Positions 19,141-63,947 of a DNA stretch of 64,000 nucleotides are shown here, one piece after another. The stretch comes from Syntrophomonadaceae bacterium (GTDB taxonomy: Bacteria > Bacillota > Dethiobacteria > DTU022 > UBA8154), in assembly GCA_007135125.1 (NCBI GenBank), contig SLJK01000053.1, forward strand, positions 3,974 through 67,973. Reading direction: 5' to 3'. The notes beneath the pieces were generated by a model. The model was given only the letters and a program-made list of their open reading frames with translations. It was not told the DNA's origin and made no database searches. Within the stretch, counting starts at the first letter, position 1, and every line of letters starts with the position of its first letter. A program made the position numbers and the translations under genes.

Positions 19141-20334
19141 TTATTTGACAGGAACTGTTACCAAATCATCAGCAATGGGGCTTAGTTTTTCAGCTCCCGT
19201 TTCTGTTATAACCCATACATTTTCCAACCCTACTACACCTTTGTCAGGAAAAACGAACTTGGGCTCCAGTGCAAATACCATTCCTGGTTGTAATAGATGA
19301 GAACCCGCAGCTAGTATTGGAAATTCATCAATATCCAAACCAAGACCATGCCCGATGAATTTAACTTTTCCATCTCCATAACCCATAAAATATTCCTCCA
19401 GGCCCTCAGAACGCGCCAATTCCAGGCTTAGCGCATAAAGATCTTCAACCGCAACACCCGGCTGACACCTGGAAATAATTTCATCCTGTATTTTCCTGGC
19501 CAACCCATAGGCTTTCAACAGCTCCGAGGAGAGTTTGCCGATAGAAAATACACGGGTGTGATCCAGGGTATATCCTTCATAGATACTGGCATAATCAAGA
19601 CCGATAGGTTCATGTGGAGCCAGTTTTTTCCATCCGGCACCCTGGGGGCTGGCAGTGGTAAGACCCTCTCCACCTGTACAGCTGTCCAAAAAAGTGCTTT
19701 TCATTCCCGTAATGCCAGAATAAACATGCCCGAAAGCCATTTCCGTATTAAAGCTTCGCATCCTTAGCAAACCCTGGTGGCCAGCCCGGCGATACAGGTT
19801 CTCTATCTCCGCAGCCAGCATTAGTTCTGTTTTTCCCACCCGCAGCAGGTCGGGCACTTTCTCCATTATCTCTGCAGCTATACGGCCGGCTTCTCTAAAA
19901 CAGTCCACTTCATAGGATGATTTAAGCATGCGTATTTCTTTAATAGCCGGGGAAACATCCTTAAATTCAACACCGGGCATAACCGCTTGAAGGTTTTGGT
20001 ACTCATTTACAGGAAGAACATCCAACTCCAAACCAATTTTATGAACTTCCTTGAACCCTGTTTCAGCCAGATATGAGGGCAATTGCTTTACAGTTTTTAA
20101 ACGCAATATCTGATCCCACTGGGATTCTTCACAGGCACGGGAAAAATTGCGCTTGACCATATAAAGAGGATCTCCTTCTGCGGGAATAAATAGATAACCC
20201 TGCTGCATGGAACCGGCAAAGTAAAACAGGTCTATCCTCTCCCTCAAAAGTGCCCCCTCCAGGTCTTCCTGCTGCAATCTTTCCTGGAATCTATTCACTC
20301 TATTTTCCAATTCAAAACGAGGGGTGGGCTGCAA
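19141..20334 (-). CDS. M24 family Xaa-Pro aminopeptidase/dipeptidase
   Basis: 397 aa; creatinase N-terminal domain plus pita-bread fold with metal ligands (HGLGLDIDE, ENV). Confidence 0.8.
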   Translation of the reverse strand: MQPTPRFELENRVNRFQERLQQEDLEGALLRERIDLFYFAGSMQQGYLFIPAEGDPLYMVKRNFSRACEESQWDQILRLKTVKQLPSYLAETGFKEVHKIGLELDVLPVNEYQNLQAVMPGVEFKDVSPAIKEIRMLKSSYEVDCFREAGRIAAEIMEKVPDLLRVGKTELMLAAEIENLYRRAGHQGLLRMRSFNTEMAFGHVYSGITGMKSTFLDSCTGGEGLTTASPQGAGWKKLAPHEPIGLDYASIYEGYTLDHTRVFSIGKLSSELLKAYGLARKIQDEIISRCQPGVAVEDLYALSLELARSEGLEEYFMGYGDGKVKFIGHGLGLDIDEFPILAAGSHLLQPGMVFALEPKFVFPDKGVVGLENVWVITETGAEKLSPIADDLVTVPVK

Positions 20335-20437
20335 ATATAAAACCTCCAGTTATGCGCTATAACGCAATAGTATGATGCTCTAATCTTAATAGAGAAGCAC
20401 ACCTTTGTCAACTGAAGAAAGCCGGCGGGTACATCCT

Positions 20438-20484
20438 ATACAGTGAAACAGCCCGGGAGATAAGCCCGGGCTGTTTCACTGTAT
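20438..20484. repeat. Perfect 20-bp inverted repeat (ATACAGTGAAACAGCCCGGG-agataag-CCCGGGCTGTTTCACTGTAT) with no adjacent U-tract
   Basis: Both arms are exact reverse complements; lies 13 bp after the small ORF stop, downstream of the SNF transporter. Confidence 0.7.
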
Positions 20485-20496
20485 CTTACAAAAACC

Positions 20497-20601
20497 TTAT
20501 TTCCATCCCTTTCCCCTGCTGGCTATCGAGGCGCTCCAGAGGAACCCTCCTCCAAATATAACCAGTCCTACAATCAAAGAAATAACAGCTGAAGCTTCCA
20601 T
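20497..20601 (-). CDS. 34-aa single-TM small protein (MEASAVISLIVGLVIFGGGFLWSASIASRGKGWK), translationally coupled to the SNF transporter; candidate small subunit
   Basis: Its ATG lies 1 nt after the transporter TAA; strong SD (AGGTGGAG) is embedded in the transporter 3' end; one hydrophobic helix then a basic tail; shorter than the ORF-track cutoff. Confidence 0.55.
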   Translation of the reverse strand: MEASAVISLIVGLVIFGGGFLWSASIASRGKGWK

Positions 20602-20602
20602 T

Positions 20603-22111
20603 TTACTCCACCTCGCCTTCTTCATCTTCATAAGGCGTTTCTTTAGTCTTAATATACATAAAAACAATCCCCAGAATTATAAGCACCGCCATCATACCCC
20701 ATCCTCCTACAATTTGCATAAAAGTGGGGTATCCTTCGTACGGTTCCCTGATACGCTCGATTAAATTAAGCGCCAGGAGCACAATTAGAACAATGGGGGT
20801 AATGAACTTGATGCAGACATCGAACCAGGCCCCGATACGAATTTCGGAAACCTCGTTGATCTGCTCCCGGATTTTATGAGCACCGTAGCCCCAACCGATA
20901 ACAAGACAGGTAAAAAGACCCACCAGAACCAGGCCAAATTGGTTAATAAAGAAATCAACCTGGTCCAACCAAAGCAGTCCGCCCCGTGAAATAAAAATCA
21001 GGCCTACCAAGAAGGCCAAACCGCTGACCAGAACTGCTGCCACCTTGCGGGTAAGATTAAACTTATCCATTACCGCGCTTAACACACTCTCCGTTAAAGA
21101 GAAGGCGGAGTCCAACCCCAGGGTGAAGATGGTTATAAAGAAAATTATTCCGATTAGCGCAGGAGCCACAGGCATAAGGCTGATAGCCTCGGGATAAGCC
21201 ACAAAAGCCAGGCCTACGCCTGAAGCAAGCACCTCATCTACCGGTACTCCCAACTGGCCGGCCATATAGCCGGTAACACTGAAAACAGCAATACCGGAGA
21301 TAAAGGCCGTAAAGGCATCGGCAAAGCTGGTCATTAAGGAATTGTTGGCTATATCCGAGTCTTTAGGTAAGTAACTGGCATAGGCGATGAGAATACCCAT
21401 GGCAAGGCTGAGCGTAAAAAAGACCTGCCCGTAAGCAGCCAGCCAAACCTGGGGGTTAGCCAGGGCAGCGAAATCAGGCTTAAGGTAGAAATTAAGACCT
21501 TCCGCGGCACCGGGTAAAGTCAGACCACGTACCATAAGTACTAATATAAGAATAAAAGGAAGAGGCATGGTAACCATGACCACCCTTCCCAATCCCTTTA
21601 CTCCGCTGAAAACAATAAAGAAGATGGCCAGCCAGCCCAGGATAAACCCCAGGATTAAAGCAGGAGAAAGACCAAAAAGTGAACCGAAGGCCCCTGCCTC
21701 CAGAACCGGCGATATACCCAAGACAGTATCATAAAAGAAAGTCTCGGCATCCATACCCCACTCCAGGGTAAAAGCCCCCCACAGGTAGCGTAGGGACCAA
21801 CCCAATATAGCCGCATAATAAGTTATTATACCAAAACCAGCCAGCACAGCCCACCAGCCTACAAATTCATAGGATGGGTTGGCTCTCTTCATAGCCAAAG
21901 GAGCAGCCCCGGCAAAACGTCTACCCAGGTTGAATTCCAGCATCATTAAAGGAATACCCGCCGTAACCAAAGCAACAAGGAACGGAATTAAGAAGGCCCC
22001 ACCACCGGAATCATAAACCACATAAGGGAACCTCCAAAGGTTACCCAACCCGACAGCTGAGCCGACGGCAGCGACCACAAAAGCGCCGCGCCAAGTCCAC
22101 CTTTCTCTCAT
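20603..22111 (-). CDS. Sodium-dependent transporter, NSS/SNF (neurotransmitter:sodium symporter) family
   Basis: 502 aa; SNF signature (GNLWRFPY), about 12 TM segments. Confidence 0.85.
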   Translation of the reverse strand: MRERWTWRGAFVVAAVGSAVGLGNLWRFPYVVYDSGGGAFLIPFLVALVTAGIPLMMLEFNLGRRFAGAAPLAMKRANPSYEFVGWWAVLAGFGIITYYAAILGWSLRYLWGAFTLEWGMDAETFFYDTVLGISPVLEAGAFGSLFGLSPALILGFILGWLAIFFIVFSGVKGLGRVVMVTMPLPFILILVLMVRGLTLPGAAEGLNFYLKPDFAALANPQVWLAAYGQVFFTLSLAMGILIAYASYLPKDSDIANNSLMTSFADAFTAFISGIAVFSVTGYMAGQLGVPVDEVLASGVGLAFVAYPEAISLMPVAPALIGIIFFITIFTLGLDSAFSLTESVLSAVMDKFNLTRKVAAVLVSGLAFLVGLIFISRGGLLWLDQVDFFINQFGLVLVGLFTCLVIGWGYGAHKIREQINEVSEIRIGAWFDVCIKFITPIVLIVLLALNLIERIREPYEGYPTFMQIVGGWGMMAVLIILGIVFMYIKTKETPYEDEEGEVE

Positions 22112-22228
22112 TATTTTCCCTCCTTAACTAAGTAATAAGGCACGCAAAAGTATTTAATTGTTCTTCCCCGGCACCTCCTTTCGACACCTTATACCTCGAA
22201 TAAACCTGTCTACAACACATGGCGCCTA

Positions 22229-56693: not shown

Positions 56694-57767
56694 CTATAAT
56701 ATCTCCAACTTCTCATCCAGCCCGGAAGTATAATGAATATCCCCTTCCTTATCTATCAATACTCCTTCCATATCAGAAAGAGTCTCTAATAATTCCAAGC
56801 CCCTTTCAATACCAAGAACAAAAACAGCTGTAGAATAAGCATCGGCAGCAAGAGTATCAGGACCCAGAACAGTCACGCTTATAATCCCTCCATCTGCTGG
56901 CCATCCGCTTTCAGGATCGATAATATGATGATAGCGTTCACCATCCTCTTCAAAAAAACGTTGGTAATCCCCTGATGTAGCCACGCTTCCCTGGTCAATT
57001 TGTAATGTGGCAAACCATTTTTGAGGATCACGGGGATCCTGGACAGCAATCTTCCATGGCTCGCCATCCGTCTTGGATCCGGTGATGTTAATATCCCCGC
57101 CGGCATTAACAAACGACCCTTCAACTCCCGATTCCTCTATTACTTTTTGTCCGCGATCTACGATAAATCCTTTGGCAATTCCTCCCAAATCCAGTTGCAT
57201 GCCTTCTTTAGCTAAAAAAACGCTGGATTCTTCCTCGTTTATTTCAACCTTTTCATAATCAACCTGTAATAGTGCCTCTTCAATTTCTTCAGAGGAAGGA
57301 CGCTGTTGTTCATCTTCTTCATTTCCAAAACCCCAAACTTCTAATAGCGGGCCCACTGTAGGGTCAAAGACCCCTTCTGTCAACCGGGAAATAGCCAGCG
57401 CCTCTTCAATTACCAGTATAACCTCCGGGCCAACCTCAACCCATTCACGACCGGCTGCCCTATTGATATGTTCAATATCGCTTCCTTCAATATGCCTGCT
57501 GAAAATGCCTTCCAAGCGTTCCATCTCGGCAAAAGCTTCTTTCGCAATAGCGTTTCCTTCACTTTCACTAATTCCATACATAGTTACAGTAACATGCGTG
57601 TCCATAACCAGGCGCATTCTGGTTATCTTATCTTCTTCAGAACCAAAACACCCGGAAAAAATCACGGCCAGAATAGTGAAGAACAGCAAAATCAATAAAA
57701 CCCTGTATCTATCCTTTTTCATAATATTTCGCTCCAATATTCTGTAACAATATATATCTTCCCGCAA
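56694..57767 (-). CDS. apbE: FAD:protein FMN transferase (ApbE family) lipoprotein
   Basis: 357 aa; signal peptide/lipobox (FSGC); ApbE fold motifs (DLGGIAKG). Confidence 0.85.
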   Translation of the reverse strand: MREDIYCYRILERNIMKKDRYRVLLILLFFTILAVIFSGCFGSEEDKITRMRLVMDTHVTVTMYGISESEGNAIAKEAFAEMERLEGIFSRHIEGSDIEHINRAAGREWVEVGPEVILVIEEALAISRLTEGVFDPTVGPLLEVWGFGNEEDEQQRPSSEEIEEALLQVDYEKVEINEEESSVFLAKEGMQLDLGGIAKGFIVDRGQKVIEESGVEGSFVNAGGDINITGSKTDGEPWKIAVQDPRDPQKWFATLQIDQGSVATSGDYQRFFEEDGERYHHIIDPESGWPADGGIISVTVLGPDTLAADAYSTAVFVLGIERGLELLETLSDMEGVLIDKEGDIHYTSGLDEKLEIL

Positions 57768-57919
57768 CTGAAAAAGGCAAACACTCTATGCAAGAGCTAT
57801 CATCTTGTCGAACATAATTATACTACCACTTTTGCTCTCTTTAAGCAAGGTAATCTCAGCAATGCTCGAAGGTAGAAAATAATAGCTAAAGTTCTCTTCT
57901 TCCTACGGAACAATTTGCA

Positions 57920-57946
57920 TAAAAAACAGCGTGACTAAATCACGCC
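57920..57946 (-). terminator. Rho-independent terminator of the Mrp-like operon (GGCGTGA-ttta-GTCACGC followed by T6 on the minus strand)
   Basis: 6-bp perfect stem; plus-strand A-run 57921-57926; 55 nt after the last gene. Confidence 0.65.
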
Positions 57947-58001
57947 ATTTGAATAGCTCACCCCGAAGTACTGTTTAAACTTTTTCCCCGTCCATATTTC
58001 C

Positions 58002-60443
58002 CTATAATTCCGTAAGACCACGGGCAAAATAAAAGAGGATAAAAATTATGATCCCCAGCATCAATACCAGGAGCAGAGAATCAAAGTTAAGGTTCTTAAT
58101 ATTCCATTCCATAGGATTTAAAGCGACTTTCTTGCGAGCACCTTGTCTTTTTTCTTCCTCCTCTTTGCCCTCCCCTCCTGTTGACTCTCCTTTTTGCAAG
58201 CTTTTATCGATAAATTCTCTGGTTGAAGAGCCAGCTTTTTCGTAACCTTTATTTAAGGCTTCATCAAATTTACCGGTACGATCCGTAAACTTTTTAACAG
58301 TTTTTCCAGTTTGTTCATAGGCTTCATCCAGCGCTTTATCTAAGCCGGCAGTGCGATCAGTCATGCGCCTTGTTGCTGCACCTGTAGATTCGTAAGCCTT
58401 ATCCAGGGCACGGTCCAAGCCGGCAGTCCGGTCTGCAAATTTTTTGACGCCGGACCCGGTGCGTTCATAAGCTTCATCTAAAGTACTGTCTAGCTCTCTG
58501 GTTTTTTTTACATAATCAAGGGCTTTTGATCCGGAGGTCATATAAAGATCATCCAATCCTTTATCAAAGGAACCAAAGTAACGGCAGAATTGGAGAAATT
58601 TGCCGCCAATCTCAGCGTAAAAATTATTCACACCCCCGTCCATTGTTTTACAGGAACGCAAAAGATAAAAATACACAATTTTTGCCAGGGGCGCAAAAAT
58701 TAAGTACTCGATACTAACCCAGCGGGGAAAGCTATATTCATACAACCTGAACTTGTGTAGTGGAATATATAACAATAATGCCAGCAAAATAACGGTGCCG
58801 GCCGCCGCCAGGGGGTGAGAACCGAAATAGGCCAGATCTCTTACATGTTCGATAGAGTATGGTTCGAAAACAAAAGAAGCTGTTGAAGCCAGGACAAATT
58901 GGTTTACAAAATAGTGGGGGAAAAACCCTATAATTAATATGAATAAGGCCAGCACATAGAGCGGGGCATAGAGTACCCATGTGCCGCTTTGCTTTACAAG
59001 CCCTTCAGGTTCTTTTCCCCAAAAAACCTGTTGAAAAAATTTCAAATAATAACAGAGAGTTAAGGCGCTGCCTACTATAAAAACCTTCTCTGCCAGGAAG
59101 ATATCCAAAGTACCATGAAGATAGTAAGCCTCCAGCAGTGAATCGTGAATAAGCGTTTTGCTAATATAACCACTAAAGAGGGGCACTCCCGCGATTGCCA
59201 GAACATATAAGATAAAAAACCCGGTCAGCATCGGCATAGAGCGATAAAGACCTCCCAATTTCTTAAACTCTAACTGACCGGTCCGGTAATAAATTATACC
59301 TACAATAAGAAAAAAACCTGTTTTGAATAGAGTATGGTTAAAAGAATGCAGCACAGCCCCGCTGTAACCCATAGCTTCTTCCGCACCAAAAAGAAAGGCT
59401 CCGGCACCAATACCCGTAAAAACATAACCCATCTGGCTGATGGAACTATAAGCTAAAAGCTTCATCATATTGCTCTGCAAAAGAGCTATTACCGCGCCAA
59501 CCACCATGGTCATAAGGCCCAGCCACATTACGAAATAACCGGTAGATACGGCGAAGGAAAAGAGATGCCCAGGCTCCAGGGTAGATGGGGTAAATACAAG
59601 CATGAGGATCCGTATTACACCGTAAACTCCGGCTTTGATCATTGCTCCCGAAGAAAGCGCATTGACTATGGCCGGCCCGGCAGCGTAAGCTTTGGGCATC
59701 CATAGATGGAGCGGCACAACTCCTGCTTTTATACCAAAACCGACAAAAAAACAGGCAAATATTAATAGCAAGCTAACTGCAGGACCTCTTTCCATCTCCT
59801 CCATCAAGTTTGTTAACTCTACAGTTCCGGCAGCACTATAAAGGGCGAATATCCCGAATAAGAGCACCAGGCCACCCGCTACTCCCAGGTATAAATAAAA
59901 TTTTCCTGCTGCCAGGGCCTGGGGATTAAGCCGCCCAATAACCAAAACATAGGAAAAAAAAGTCATCATTTCAAAAAACAAAAAAAGAGTGACCAGGTCT
60001 CCGGCGACAAAAACACCTAGAATACTTCCCAGTGTTAATAGTGAAAAACAATAATATAGAACATGATTGGCTTCAACCCGAATATAATGATAAGCAAATA
60101 TAAGCACAAGCATCCAGGCCAGGGAAGCTAAAAAAGCAAATATAAAACCTAAAAGATCCACCCTGAACGAAAGCCCCAGGCTCATGAGTTCGTAAAAGCG
60201 ATATTCTATCACCCCCTGACGCACTAATGGATACAAAGAAAGCACCATAAGAAAAGTGGCCATTCCCGCCAGGGAAGCAAAAAAAGCGGCCAATCTTTTA
60301 TTTTTAATGCTGAGCACATAAACCACAAGTGCTGCAGCCATAGGAAAAAGAACAACGGCCACAGGCCGCAAGGAAATAATGGTGTCAGCAGCTGCCAAAT
60401 TGTTCGATATTGCAGATAAAATCATGGGAACCATCCCCTTCAA
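58002..60443 (-). CDS. MrpA/NuoL-like antiporter-type membrane subunit with a C-terminal tandem 25-aa repeat domain and a terminal TM anchor
   Basis: 813 aa; proton-pumping antiporter-like core; residues about 600-720 contain 4 repeats (xGLDxALDxAYExTGxxxxxFxDRT); final TM LLLVLMLGIIIFILFYF. Confidence 0.75.
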   Translation of the reverse strand: MKGMVPMILSAISNNLAAADTIISLRPVAVVLFPMAAALVVYVLSIKNKRLAAFFASLAGMATFLMVLSLYPLVRQGVIEYRFYELMSLGLSFRVDLLGFIFAFLASLAWMLVLIFAYHYIRVEANHVLYYCFSLLTLGSILGVFVAGDLVTLFLFFEMMTFFSYVLVIGRLNPQALAAGKFYLYLGVAGGLVLLFGIFALYSAAGTVELTNLMEEMERGPAVSLLLIFACFFVGFGIKAGVVPLHLWMPKAYAAGPAIVNALSSGAMIKAGVYGVIRILMLVFTPSTLEPGHLFSFAVSTGYFVMWLGLMTMVVGAVIALLQSNMMKLLAYSSISQMGYVFTGIGAGAFLFGAEEAMGYSGAVLHSFNHTLFKTGFFLIVGIIYYRTGQLEFKKLGGLYRSMPMLTGFFILYVLAIAGVPLFSGYISKTLIHDSLLEAYYLHGTLDIFLAEKVFIVGSALTLCYYLKFFQQVFWGKEPEGLVKQSGTWVLYAPLYVLALFILIIGFFPHYFVNQFVLASTASFVFEPYSIEHVRDLAYFGSHPLAAAGTVILLALLLYIPLHKFRLYEYSFPRWVSIEYLIFAPLAKIVYFYLLRSCKTMDGGVNNFYAEIGGKFLQFCRYFGSFDKGLDDLYMTSGSKALDYVKKTRELDSTLDEAYERTGSGVKKFADRTAGLDRALDKAYESTGAATRRMTDRTAGLDKALDEAYEQTGKTVKKFTDRTGKFDEALNKGYEKAGSSTREFIDKSLQKGESTGGEGKEEEEKRQGARKKVALNPMEWNIKNLNFDSLLLVLMLGIIIFILFYFARGLTEL

Positions 60444-60532: not shown

Positions 60533-62032
60533 CTATGGCATCCCGCTTTGGAAAAGAAAACTGGCTGCCTTAAGGGAAAGTTCAAAAAGAAAATTATGGG
60601 GCATGAGGCCAAAAACAAAACAGCTTAATCCCAACACGGCCAAAGGGATAATCATGCCATAAGTGGCATCATCATACTCAAGGGCCAGGGATTCTTCCCC
60701 TTCATGTTCATTTTCCCCTCCAAAAAAGGCTGCAATAATAATAGGCAGATAATACAGCCCGTTTAACAAACTGCTTACCAGTAAAATAAATACGTAAAAG
60801 GGAACTCCTGCATCAAGTGCCCCCAGGGCTAACGTCCACTTGCTGAGAAATCCATTCAAGGGGGGAATACCGATCATGGCCAGCGCAGCAATGGTAAAAG
60901 CTCCCATGGTGACAGGCATTTTTTTGCCTATACCATGAAGGTCGTTAATGTTGCGCAACCCTGTTTTCCAAATAATTGCGCCTGCCGCAAGAAAGAGGGT
61001 GCTCTTCATCAAGGCGTGGCTGAAAATGTGAAAAACGTCTCCCACCAGCGCCTTTTCGTTTAAAAGAGCCATACCCATGATGATATATCCCATCTGCCCC
61101 ACACTGGAATAAGCCAGCCGCCTTTTAAGATCATCCTGGGTCAACGCAACCGCTGAACCAAGTACGATCGTTATAACCGCCAGCACACCTAAAAGAATAT
61201 CCCAATTTGCCTCTTTAACTAAAGGAATATTAAAAACGGTAAAAAGGACCCTTAGCAGGCCGTAGGCCCCGGTTTTCAGCATGATACCGGAAAGCAAAGC
61301 GCTGGCTGGTGAAGGGGCTACCGGGTGAGCATCAGGTAACCAAACATGTAAAGGGAACATACCGGCCTTCATTCCGAACCCGATCAGAAAGTTAAGAAAA
61401 GCCAGGAAAGCCATTGTACTGGGCACGGTGATAAGAGTTCCTTCACTAAGGCTGACAGAACCGGCCAGCTCAAAGGTCAGAATAATGGCGAAAAATAACG
61501 CCAGACCGCCAATAATAGTCATGATCAGGTATTTGTATCCGGCCCGCAGAGCTTCACGAGTTTCCTCATGAATAACCAGCACATATGAAATAAGAGACAT
61601 AAGTTCAAAGAAAATAAAAAGAGTAAAAAAATCACCCGCCACAAATATACCCAGGCAGCTGCCGAGAACAAATATAAATATGGGGTAAAACCTATCGCCT
61701 GCGTGTTCATGAGACATGTAATCGATGGCATAAATGGAGACCAACATCCACACAAAGGAAGAAATAAGTGCCAGGCTGAAACTCAGGATGTCCAGTCTTA
61801 CAGTAATCCCCAATCCCGGCAAAATATCAAAGATGGTATAAGCAATTACCCCTCCATCTGCCACTGAGGGGTACATAGCTACCACAGATATAAAAGTGAG
61901 CACCGCTGTTGTTACAGAAAGACCGTCACGCATTTTCTCTGAACGCCTGCTGCTAACAAAGATAACAATAGACATAAAAATTGGAAATATTACTACCCAA
62001 ACAGGCAGAAAATTATAGATAGCTGTATCCAA
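60533..62032 (-). CDS. MrpD/NuoN/NuoM-like antiporter-type membrane subunit
   Basis: 499 aa; about 14 TM; conserved antiporter-module residues. Confidence 0.8.
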   Translation of the reverse strand: MDTAIYNFLPVWVVIFPIFMSIVIFVSSRRSEKMRDGLSVTTAVLTFISVVAMYPSVADGGVIAYTIFDILPGLGITVRLDILSFSLALISSFVWMLVSIYAIDYMSHEHAGDRFYPIFIFVLGSCLGIFVAGDFFTLFIFFELMSLISYVLVIHEETREALRAGYKYLIMTIIGGLALFFAIILTFELAGSVSLSEGTLITVPSTMAFLAFLNFLIGFGMKAGMFPLHVWLPDAHPVAPSPASALLSGIMLKTGAYGLLRVLFTVFNIPLVKEANWDILLGVLAVITIVLGSAVALTQDDLKRRLAYSSVGQMGYIIMGMALLNEKALVGDVFHIFSHALMKSTLFLAAGAIIWKTGLRNINDLHGIGKKMPVTMGAFTIAALAMIGIPPLNGFLSKWTLALGALDAGVPFYVFILLVSSLLNGLYYLPIIIAAFFGGENEHEGEESLALEYDDATYGMIIPLAVLGLSCFVFGLMPHNFLFELSLKAASFLFQSGMP

Positions 62033-62101: not shown

Positions 62102-63571
62102 TCACAAACCTATCGCTCTTTCAATAAAACTGAGCACAGGAGCCGGGTAAAAACCAAAGAAGATAATGCCTACGGCCAGTACCATAACCGGGACCAGCAT
62201 TAAAGCAGGAACATCTTTGTGCTCCGACTGGGGCATGATCTGTGTCCCAAAAAAAGCATCAATCACAATGGGAAAATAATAAATTCCGTTTAACAGGCTG
62301 CTTAATAAAATCACGGCCACAAAAAAGGGCCTCTCCAAATCTAAAGCTCCAAGGGCAAGGTGCCATTTACTGATAAAACCATTAGTACCGGGGATGCCTA
62401 CCATGGAAAACGCCCCTACGGTAAAAGCCAGCATAGTAAGGGGCATCCTCATCCCGATGCCTTTTAAATCTCTTATTTTTCTTATCCCGGAAGCATAAAT
62501 GATCAAGCCGGCAGCTAAAAATAGCATGGCCTTCATCATGGCATGATTAAAAATATGCAGAAGACCCCCTGCTAGAGCCCTGCCTTCAAAAAGCCCTATC
62601 CCCATAAAAACAAACCCTATCTGTGCGATACTGGAGTAGGCCAGCATCTTTTTTATATCATCCTGTACCATGGCAATAATTGAGCCGGCTAAAATCGCCA
62701 ATACTGAAAGGAATAGAACAATATCAAGAACAGGGATTACTTCAAAAATCTGCGGCGGAAAAACCTGAAATAAAAGTTTCACCAGGGCTACTGCATAGAT
62801 CTTTATTACCAGCCCTGATAAAACTGCACTGGAAGGTGAAGGAGCCGAAGAATGAGCATCGGGCAACCAAACATGTAACGGGAACAAAGCAGACTTAACC
62901 CCTAAGGAAACAATTATTAGACTCAAAGCAATAACAATATTATAAGGATAAAGGGGCAGGACATGAGGAAGTTCCTGTGCCACATAGGTAAAATTAAGGT
63001 TCCCCGTTATCATATAAAGCATCGCCACTGCCAATAAAAAACAACCTGAGCCCATAACACTCAAAATCAAATACTTCAAACTGGCTTCAATGCATTTGCG
63101 GTCATCTTTGATGGAAATAATACCACAAGCAGCAATAGTAGAAATTTCTATAAAGACATAGAGATTGAATAGATCATTGGTTAGAGCTATTCCACACATA
63201 GCCCCCAGCAGTAACAGGTAAAGGCTGCAGTACCAATGCAGGACATCACTTTTCAATTCGTGTCTCAGATCCTCTACGCCGTAAATGAGGACTACAAAAC
63301 TGATAGAGGTAAGGACCATTAGCACGTAGGCAGAAAGATAATCTACATACAGCTCAACACCCCATGGCGGCGGCCAACCTCCTACATGGTAGCTAAAAGG
63401 ACCTTCCTTCCCCACATGCTGAAGCAGATAAATGGATATAATAAAAACAATACCAAGAACCAACAGGGTGAGCTGGAAGGCCAGGTTTCTCCGCTTTTTA
63501 CCCAACAGGGAAACAACAAAAGATACCCCAAACAGTAAAACAACCATTAAAACGGGAAGATGAAGGTACAA
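62102..63571 (-). CDS. MrpD/NuoN/NuoM-like antiporter-type membrane subunit (paralog)
   Basis: 489 aa; paralogous to 60533-62032. Confidence 0.8.
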   Translation of the reverse strand: MYLHLPVLMVVLLFGVSFVVSLLGKKRRNLAFQLTLLVLGIVFIISIYLLQHVGKEGPFSYHVGGWPPPWGVELYVDYLSAYVLMVLTSISFVVLIYGVEDLRHELKSDVLHWYCSLYLLLLGAMCGIALTNDLFNLYVFIEISTIAACGIISIKDDRKCIEASLKYLILSVMGSGCFLLAVAMLYMITGNLNFTYVAQELPHVLPLYPYNIVIALSLIIVSLGVKSALFPLHVWLPDAHSSAPSPSSAVLSGLVIKIYAVALVKLLFQVFPPQIFEVIPVLDIVLFLSVLAILAGSIIAMVQDDIKKMLAYSSIAQIGFVFMGIGLFEGRALAGGLLHIFNHAMMKAMLFLAAGLIIYASGIRKIRDLKGIGMRMPLTMLAFTVGAFSMVGIPGTNGFISKWHLALGALDLERPFFVAVILLSSLLNGIYYFPIVIDAFFGTQIMPQSEHKDVPALMLVPVMVLAVGIIFFGFYPAPVLSFIERAIGL

Positions 63572-63572
63572 G

Positions 63573-63947
63573 TTATTGGTCCTCCCTGGTTCTTAACATT
63601 GCAATTTCATCCGCATCACAAGTGCCATAAGTGGCGTAAAGCTTTACGATAAGGCTAAGAGCATAAGCTGTAACGCTGACAGCCACAACGATACCGGTCA
63701 ATATGAGGGCTGAAGGCAGTGGATTTATATAAAGCAGCCCCCCTTCTTCCGCAATAATAGGAGCTCTTCCACCTCTAACATAACCTATGGATACAAAAAA
63801 AAGAAATATCCCCGTTTCCATGATATTCATTCCCATAACCTTCTTTATCATATTGGAATGAGTTAGCATGGTATGAAGGCCAATTACAAATAAAACCATG
63901 GCTACAAAGTAGTAATAATTATCCAGAATTTTAATTATTATTTCCAC
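63573..63947 (-). CDS. mrpC: MrpC/MnhC (NuoK-like) subunit
   Basis: 124 aa; 3 TM; conserved PLPSALILTGIVV segment; 1-bp spacing to the next gene. Confidence 0.75.
   Translation of the reverse strand: MEIIIKILDNYYYFVAMVLFVIGLHTMLTHSNMIKKVMGMNIMETGIFLFFVSIGYVRGGRAPIIAEEGGLLYINPLPSALILTGIVVAVSVTAYALSLIVKLYATYGTCDADEIAMLRTREDQ

Follow-up and report, generated by a model that had tools for sequence, protein, structure and literature searches.

The lateral helix (HL) is a signature element of complex I and of the Mrp, MBH and MBS complexes, and whether it works as a coupling rod or as a clamp has long been debated. In the complex I structures of E. coli and T. thermophilus, it measures roughly 73 residues (about 110 Å) and spans three subunits. 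The literature describes the HL as a universally conserved element that keeps the antiporter-like subunits together and whose length is taken to match their number (PMC8165549), and it places the HL on the cytoplasmic side (PMC9568556). Both 2M complex I and the MrpD2 of the Manganitrophaceae are reported to combine a 26-aa insertion in the HL with one extra subunit (Chadwick et al. 2018, cited in PMC9040806). Here, a stretch of 64,000 nucleotides (nt) from contig SLJK01000053.1 of a Syntrophomonadaceae bacterium (hereafter, the window) was analyzed, and the last gene of its Mrp-like operon, gene T, was found to encode a subunit in which the predicted HL is enlarged by six tandem units of 25 amino acids (aa). 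Protein T is an HL-bearing antiporter-like subunit of the type represented by NuoL, by the N-terminal part of MrpA, and by MbsH'. The parts of T are listed below; helix boundaries and the predicted local distance difference test (pLDDT) scores were obtained with AlphaFold2 (AF2).

58002..60443, minus strand: gene T, last gene of the Mrp-like operon, an open reading frame (ORF) of 813 aa with a TTG start
59124..60005, minus strand: Proton_antipo_M core of T, aa 147-440 (Pfam PF00361, E=1.1e-54)
58752..58820, minus strand: transmembrane (TM) helix TM15 of T, aa 542-564, the helix that gives rise to the lateral helix (AF2 helix 542-564)
58644..58718, minus strand: HL part 1, aa 576-600 (VSIEYLIFAPLAKIVYFYLLRSCKT), the non-repeat start of the HL (AF2 helix from aa 578)
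58569..58643, minus strand: unit 1, aa 601-625 (MDGGVNNFYAEIGGKFLQFCRYFGS), degenerate and more hydrophobic, its position kept across the wider family
58494..58568, minus strand: unit 2, aa 626-650 (FDKGLDDLYMTSGSKALDYVKKTRE), its position kept among orthologs
58419..58493, minus strand: unit 3, aa 651-675 (LDSTLDEAYERTGSGVKKFADRTAG), a place of low AF2 confidence and of a helix break
58344..58418, minus strand: unit 4, aa 676-700 (LDRALDKAYESTGAATRRMTDRTAG), in the 25-aa register
58269..58343, minus strand: unit 5, aa 701-725 (LDKALDEAYEQTGKTVKKFTDRTGK), in the 25-aa register
58194..58268, minus strand: unit 6, aa 726-750 (FDEALNKGYEKAGSSTREFIDKSLQ), of the conserved terminal type LD.ALD.GYEKAG
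58119..58193, minus strand: Lys/Glu-rich linker of T, aa 751-775 (AF2 pLDDT <50, no helix; predicted disordered)
58080..58118, minus strand: conserved pre-anchor motif NP.EWNIKNLNFD, aa 776-788 (NPMEWNIKNLNFD in T)
58008..58079, minus strand: C-terminal TM anchor of T, equivalent to TM16, aa 789-812 (AF2 helix 787-812; hydrophobic stretch SLLLVLMLGIIIFILFYFA)

The six in-register units occupy aa 601-750 of T (nt 58194-58643, minus strand). In the post-core region, the BLOSUM62 autocorrelation is highest at lag 25 (z=21.8 versus shuffles), and the protein repeat is thereby confirmed as real, far beyond chance. Each unit is roughly neutral in charge, and units 3, 4 and 5 share 56-68% amino-acid identity among themselves. 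An earlier, sequence-only reading of this DNA had rightly recognized a repeat domain, but it counted four units, and the span assigned to them (58286-58631, aa 605-720) cuts both ends of the array. It had placed the domain correctly between the antiporter core and the final TM anchor, as the segment follows TM15 and precedes the anchor, and the Lys/Glu-rich linker that it described after the repeats is indeed found at aa 751-775, with the C-terminal anchor beyond it. A periodicity of about 75 bp, which it had also reported, is present only weakly. Base identity within the array is 0.48 at lag 75, 0.44 at lag 150 and ≤0.35 at other lags; the best pair of units reaches 59% nucleotide identity, and identity at third codon positions between units is near random (0.20-0.48). 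Tandem Repeats Finder, applied to positions 57000-60000, reported no repeat in the array and one 12-bp item elsewhere. A recent DNA-level tandem repeat in the window genome was therefore rejected, and the weak DNA periodicity, a shadow of the protein repeat, comes only from codon conservation. Since third positions are random and nucleotide identity is weak, the repeats of the window genome are old and kept by selection on the protein. Database searches with the repeat region returned little: the C-terminal 213 aa gave only sub-threshold noise in Pfam (DUF1664, DUF6781 and TMP_2, far below the cut-off), the C-terminal 290 aa gave only noise in a PDB sequence search (designed TPR, kinesin coiled coil), the fragment of aa 440-650 had no match, and a word-indexed protein database queried with the repeats alone returned one fragment.

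The repeats had been thought to stand in place of the lateral helix, a claim that did not hold, as the start of the HL is retained in T. This start, found right after TM15 (PRWVSIEYLIFAP), aligns to LSERMSLNFFY of MrpA (6z16_A) in a profile alignment of the T family that passes through the TM15 region. Its motif P.WLS(I/V)E is conserved across the family, and P573, S577 and P585 are nearly invariant among 120 homologs. AF2 modeling of full-length T, based on the same 120 homologs (mean pLDDT 85; predicted template modeling score, pTM, 0.78), predicted the antiporter core together with helices at aa 578-659 and 674-751 (pLDDT about 60-83). A second AF2 run, performed on aa 574-790 with a gap-free alignment of 14 six-unit orthologs, gave helices at aa 578-672 and 678-752 with a pTM of 0.23. 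The structure-prediction check proposed in the sequence-only reading thus came out in its favor: the segment is predicted as helical and not as a disordered low-complexity linker.

The Eisenberg hydrophobic moment of aa 576-750 (175 residues) peaks at 100.5 degrees per residue with a value of 0.34 (z=7.5), which was reached by 0 of 500 shuffles, and the hydrophobic phases of units 1-6 lie within 32-60 degrees. Twenty-five residues make seven alpha-helical turns, about 37.5 Å (360 x 7/25 = 100.8 degrees per residue), thus an added module would lengthen the helix without rotating its downstream part. The HL start and the six units present a single continuous narrow hydrophobic stripe (positions 1, 5, 8/9, 12, 16, 19 and 23), flanked by the conserved polar residues D2, D/N6, E10, G13, R17 and R22 of the unit. 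Because the usual HL start is kept and the units extend the same predicted helix, the model indicates that the repeat segment of T is the HL itself, enlarged, and not a substitute for it. About 175 helical residues correspond to about 260 Å at 1.5 Å per residue, roughly 2.4 times the HL of complex I. A helix of this size either extends well past D2 and D1, the two antiporter-like subunits encoded beside T, or is not straight.

The identification of T as an MrpA/NuoL-like subunit, already proposed from the letters of the DNA, was borne out. PF00361 is the sole Pfam family found in the protein (186 bits versus a gathering cut-off of 21.5), and Foldseek with the full-length model returned MrpA, MrpD and NuoL as top matches, those to MrpA, NuoL and NdhF extending over 600-700 columns. 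The closest solved chains are MbhH (6cfw_H), MbsH' (6u8y_X) and MrpA (7qru_A, 6z16_A). No NCBIfam model scored above its own cut-off; the best was PRK08668, the MbsH'-type model named NADH dehydrogenase subunit M (282 bits versus 617), followed by MrpD, HyfB and MrpA models. Residues E158, K239, H246, K270, H366, H370, K374 and K429 are invariant in 120 homologs, and their assignment to helices (TM5 Glu, TM7 Lys, TM8/TM12 Lys/His) is tentative, by analogy. After its 14-TM core, T has TM15, a predicted lateral amphipathic helix and a single TM anchor, the arrangement of the HL-bearing subclass (NuoL, MrpA-N, MbsH' and HyfB). In the pre-anchor motif, N203, P204, W207, I209, N211, F214 and D215 are invariant (alignment A3). 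The start of the gene is ambiguous (60425-60443): the longest ORF begins at TTG 60443 and gives 813 aa, and public gene calls start at an ATG located six codons further downstream. P0001, the copy in the public database, is 807 aa long and 100% identical to T.

A whole-protein search retrieved 35 close homologs with the same repeats, from Dethiobacter and from Bacillota metagenome-assembled genomes (MAGs), and the lengths of these proteins are quantized by about 25 aa. Scanning of GTDB genomes with the anchor motif NP.EWNIKNLNFD yielded 39 loci, most of them from soda-lake sediments (CSSed/T3Sed MAGs), serpentinizing sites (CROMO) and deep mines. Across about 25 loci with enough flanking sequence, T has 5, 6 or 7 units, and all of the arrays are strictly in the 25-aa register, with no other indels inside. 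Length differences that are not multiples of 25 aa are confined to the linker, 8 to about 60 aa long and variable in sequence as well. In a gap-free alignment of 14 orthologs with identities as low as 34%, residues D2, L5 and Y9 of successive units do not vary, and the linker is unconserved. The comparison of orthologs called for by the sequence-only reading therefore revealed a conserved segment with a copy number of 5-7, and the phrase length-adjustable lateral element, which that reading had ventured, is fair, as copy number does differ between orthologs.

In some lineages the duplications are recent, given adjacent 75-bp copies that are 91-96% identical. These are units 3 and 4 of L021, an in-frame duplication with 96% nucleotide and 100% amino-acid identity, units 4 and 5 of L012 (92% nucleotide identity), and units 2 and 3 of L020 and 3 and 4 of L017 (91% each). 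The recent duplicates are located mid-array, and L017 and L021, which are closely related, have unit numbers that differ by exactly one. Units 1 and 2 and the final unit belong to recognizable types with positions conserved among the orthologs. Cultured Dethiobacter alkaliphilus carries a six-unit version of T that has no linker (P0028).

A profile search of 1.84 billion representative proteins matched 162 proteins, thus the wider family is rare. HL repeats are significant in 70 of 174 full-length family members, with periods of 25 (55 proteins), 26 (4), 27 (1), 50 (2) and 52 (5), and the unit sequences differ strongly between the branches despite the recurring 25/26/52 period. The HL plus linker varies from about 30 aa in MbsH'-like proteins (P0204, P0212, P0218) through about 100 aa up to 234 aa, and P0136 has about nine units. 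Four very long profile matches (P0156, P0186, P0250 and P0258; E-values, 1e-22 to 1e-4) were rejected as spurious; they are of the BspA/DUF285 type with 25-aa repeats ('SFNQPLNDWNVSSVTDM'), and were picked up because of a shared period and W-N-V/I pattern.

Unit 1 of T contains MDGGVNNFY, which resembles the canonical NuoL HL motif IDGxVNG. In the NuoL-type protein P0246, a canonical C-terminus (FDIYIIDGIVNGVG...LRPIQTG) follows two more 26-aa copies of that motif (3 x 26 aa), and in P0238, units of the FDRMIDKGY type are followed by a canonical FDIRVVDGTVNG...LRKPETG. Unit 1 and these two intermediates suggest that the repeat unit may be derived from the canonical HL motif.

Several loci of the wider family differ in gene content. 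L049 (3271-15127) carries a complex-I-like operon of 11 subunits (nuoA, B, CD, H, I, J, K, a 133-aa gene of unknown kind, L, M, N), whose NuoL is P0238 (735 aa), with about three extra HL units of 26-27 aa before the canonical NuoL C-terminus and just M and N for the HL to span; a second PF00361 gene (824 aa) is found on the opposite strand at 20134-22208. In L044 (1-9342), at least five consecutive PF00361 genes encode 462+, 491, 523, 691 and 814 aa. The two long proteins have HL repeats of about 52 aa, a unit that looks like two 26-aa halves, one DxGxNG-like and the other DxxLxPxxLxP-like. L043 (6907-14133), from the same sample as the window contig, has four antiporter-like genes (492, 499, 677 and 665 aa). 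Its 677- and 665-aa proteins both end in the WN(I/T)KNLNFD anchor motif, the former with about one unit and an acidic coil, the latter with four units. The numbers of antiporter-like genes and of HL units are as follows.

Window clade: 3 antiporter-like genes; 5-7 units
L046: 2 antiporter-like genes; 7 units
L043: 4 antiporter-like genes, two of them HL-bearing (677 aa and 665 aa); about 1 and 4 units
L044: at least 5 antiporter-like genes; 52-aa units in two subunits
L049: L, M and N only; about 3 extra units in NuoL

Based on the gene counts of the window clade, L046, L043 and L049, a ruler of one unit per antiporter-like subunit was rejected. T likewise departs from the rule that the HL is just long enough for the antiporter-like subunits (PMC8165549).

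Genes adjoining T in the window are listed below.

56694..57767, minus strand: apbE, flavin transferase gene downstream of T (PF02424, 314 bits)
60533..62032, minus strand: D2, a 499-aa MrpD-like subunit without HL (PF00361, 236 bits), its position conserved in all loci
62102..63571, minus strand: D1, a 489-aa MrpD-like subunit without HL (PF00361, 210 bits)
63573..63947, minus strand: MnhC/NuoK-like small subunit (PF00420)

The genes mnhB, mbhE, mbhD, mnhG, mrpF, mnhE, moaC and rnfBAEGDC lie beyond the end of the window. On contigs L001-L003, which are identical to it, the full operon reads rnfCDGEAB-moaC-mnhE-mrpF-mnhG-mbhD-mbhE-mnhB-mnhC-D1-D2-T-apbE, with the Pfam set PF01899, PF04066, PF03334, PF13244, PF20501, PF04039, PF00420 and three copies of PF00361. 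This is an Mrp-type (CPA3) antiporter operon with a split, Mbh-like gene order (MnhE, MrpF, MnhG, MnhB, MnhC and MrpD-like subunits). The sequence-only reading also noted that MrpA has an MrpB-like domain at the position of the repeats; the C-terminal, MrpB-like parts of MrpA are present here as MbhD, MbhE and MnhB, products of separate upstream genes. The order rnfB-(moaC)-mnhEFG-mbhDE-mnhBC-D1-D2-T-apbE is invariant in about 25 loci with enough flank, apbE is located downstream of T in nearly all related loci, and the Mrp-like genes are found between rnf (sometimes with moaC) and apbE in every sufficiently flanked locus of the repeat-bearing clade. The flavin transferase ApbE acts in the maturation of RnfG and RnfD. 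The spacing between moaC and mnhE on L001 is about 3 bp. No terminator-like site was found on the minus strand of the 234-bp gap between T and apbE (57768-58001), which contains one weak promoter-like match (57811-57783, 9/12); co-transcription of apbE with the operon is possible.

In L046 (2886-12400), the genes directly after rnfCDGEAB encode a D2 ortholog (66% identity) and a T of 799 aa with 7 units, and no mnhE, mrpF, mnhG, mbhD, mbhE, mnhB, mnhC, D1 or apbE was found within 10 kb; downstream, L046 shares the neighbors of the window operon (Hpre_diP_synt_I, maf, radC and mreBCD). Near these operons, RnfG (FMN_bind) has an unusual length that differs between loci, with 272, 368 and 556 aa (L001 657-1475, L046 5153-6259 and L045 848-2518, respectively).

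The array is probably, with considerable reserve, an amphipathic strap of modular build that lies on the cytoplasmic surface of the membrane and evolves in length by seven-turn modules that preserve its phase. The repeat, the helix prediction, the phase coherence, the conservation, the copy-number variation and the operon context were read directly from the data; the surface location, the strap function and the contacts of the extra HL length are what we infer. In-frame tandem duplication of the 25-residue module would enlarge the HL, which, by homology with NuoL, MrpA and MbsH', is expected at the cytoplasmic face of the membrane. From TM15 of T, the helix would pass along D2, D1 and beyond, and end in the flexible K/E linker, followed by the NP.EWNIKNLNFD motif and the TM anchor, and in this way it would strap or tether the chain of membrane modules together. 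Length would change in whole-module quanta, with new 75-bp copies arising mid-array and with units 1, 2 and the last one staying in position; the extra length could cross the small-subunit module, enter a dimer partner, or reach another complex. Indels that come only in 25-aa quanta beside a linker of any length are expected if the orientation of the helix face matters throughout.

Several observations weigh against the strap. HL length is not tied to the number of antiporter-like genes, and in the window clade the number of units varies from 5 to 7 while the operon stays at three such genes. In the CROMO clade (MAGs from the CROMO site; L017, L020, L021 and L042), the linker is just 8 aa long, and since so short a linker leaves almost nothing to absorb a change of 37 Å, a TM anchor docked at a fixed site is hard to reconcile with these proteins. 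The predicted helix is interrupted near mid-array in both AF2 runs (aa 660-673 and aa 673-677), with low confidence, and the path of the helix along the complex is one that we infer. Finally, a profile built from 27 units detects no HL of any solved NuoL or MrpA, so that an origin of the unit in the canonical HL motif is a lead and not a result.

The mid-array break could mean a hairpin instead of a single rod. In that case, the array would form a long hairpin of antiparallel helices, or a coiled coil, at the cytoplasmic face or above it, with the TM anchor back near T, and would serve as an arm for dimerization or partner binding, which we consider rather unlikely. Such a hairpin could gain or lose a single unit with little displacement of the anchor, and it would fit the linkerless L017, L020 and L021. 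Both models break close to the array midpoint, the narrow hydrophobic stripe contains many small residues (L, L, A/Y, T, A, L/F, T), as in helix-helix packing, and its spacing of 4,3,4,4,3,4,3 is heptad/hendecad-like. However, no conserved turn element (Pro or a Gly-rich loop) is found at a fixed tip, and the position of the break differs between the two models and coincides with low pLDDT. Foldseek with the fragment model gave 0 matches at E<=10, hence no tertiary-contact matches, as expected for isolated helices; together with the low pTM of that model, this means that AF2 does not decide between a rod and a hairpin. The opposite extreme, in which the repeats are a neutral spacer before a loosely attached TM16 and 75-bp slippage or unequal recombination resizes the tether without consequence, is highly improbable. 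Copy number does vary among close relatives, recent duplicates do exist, and the linker adjoining the array is clearly unconstrained. Yet conservation at specific positions within the units is strong (D2, L5 and Y9), the window units are old with randomized third positions and units 3, 4 and 5 nevertheless keep their amino-acid identity, and length changes are limited to phase-preserving 25-aa quanta next to a linker of any length. In addition, the 25/26/52 period recurs in divergent branches with different unit sequences.

A further explanation assigns the excess length to the upstream-encoded Rnf complex: the oversized HL would bridge the antiporter-like subunits to Rnf and form an Rnf-antiporter supercomplex. 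The HL far exceeds the length needed for D2 and D1, the rnf...apbE synteny is strict in the repeat-bearing clade, and L046 has D2 and T directly after rnfB with none of the small Mrp genes within 10 kb. A redox-driven ion pump strapped to Mrp modules would also be analogous to the combination of a hydrogenase with Mrp that gave MBH and complex I. Nevertheless, the bridge is improbable. Synteny may reflect functional coupling through a common Na+/H+ cycle in which the complexes do not touch, and the literature already discusses that Rnf and Mrp are co-regulated in Methanosarcina. Relatives outside the clade (Hujiaoplasma L048; L044) are not beside rnf, and the L046 genome could carry its small-subunit genes at another locus. 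The broader version, where a modular HL ties the antiporter-like subunits either to Rnf or to a second protomer, giving an Rnf-Mrp respiratory supercomplex with a strap length tuned by seven-turn modules, appears equally doubtful.

No description of a tandem-repeat or copy-number-variable HL was found in the literature. The HL itself is known, and what is new in the T type is its modular construction, its length and its variability. The operons, equivalent in other respects, form a natural series in which the HL has between one and about nine whole modules of 25 residues (about 37 Å). For a helix that runs along the complex, the anchor could not keep a fixed position, which would argue against mechanisms that need a precise HL geometry and would make the series a natural construct set for testing the role of the HL. 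Experiments are possible since D. alkaliphilus, with its six-unit T, is cultured. A strap to Rnf or across protomers is speculative; if the extra length does contact Rnf or a dimer partner, it would point to an undescribed assembly in alkaliphilic anaerobes of soda lakes and serpentinizing sites, where Na+/H+ bioenergetics is critical.

Compared with complex I, T is predicted to share with NuoL/ND5 and NdhF an amphipathic HL on the cytoplasmic (N) side that follows the 14-TM core and TM15 and is closed by a single TM anchor at the end. It differs in having about 175 helical residues and six tandem units of 25 aa, versus about 73 residues in NuoL, and it falls outside the NuoL families TIGR01974 and PRK06590, with 170 bits against a cut-off of 556 for the latter. 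The operon, unlike that of complex I, has no Nuo Q-module genes and no nuoB, nuoC, nuoD or nuoH. The HL quantum of about 25-26 residues in NuoL of the Nitrospira 2M complex I and in MrpD2 of Ca. Manganitrophaceae is the same as the T module. In these two, however, a single insertion goes together with one extra antiporter-like subunit, whereas T has five extra modules and no extra genes, its copy number varies between orthologs, and its units are visibly repeats of each other.

MbsH' of the sulfane reductase MBS (6u8y chain X; PRK08668) is the best or second-best match of T among both solved structures and NCBIfam models. Like T, it is a distal HL-bearing subunit in a split Mrp-like module with separate MbhD/MbhE-type genes, and the short relatives P0204, P0212 and P0218 (613-618 aa) have the MbsH' form, with an HL of about 30 residues and no repeats. 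T nevertheless falls outside the PRK08668 equivalog, and no homologs of MbsJ, MbsK, MbsL or MbsN and no sulfane-reductase or hydrogenase genes were found at its locus. With MrpA (6z16, 7qru, 7d3u), T shares an N-terminal antiporter-like domain followed by TM15-HL-TM16, and, as in Mrp, all of the subunit families E, F, G, B, C and D are present in the operon, which has three antiporter-like subunits where Mrp has two. The best MrpA model gives T 223 bits against a cut-off of 1104, so that it is not a canonical MrpA. MrpA continues past TM16 into TM17-21, which are MbhD/MbhE-like, whereas T ends at its anchor and mbhD (PF13244) and mbhE (PF20501) are separate upstream genes. T is thus the counterpart of the N-terminal, HL-bearing half of MrpA, or of MbsH'.

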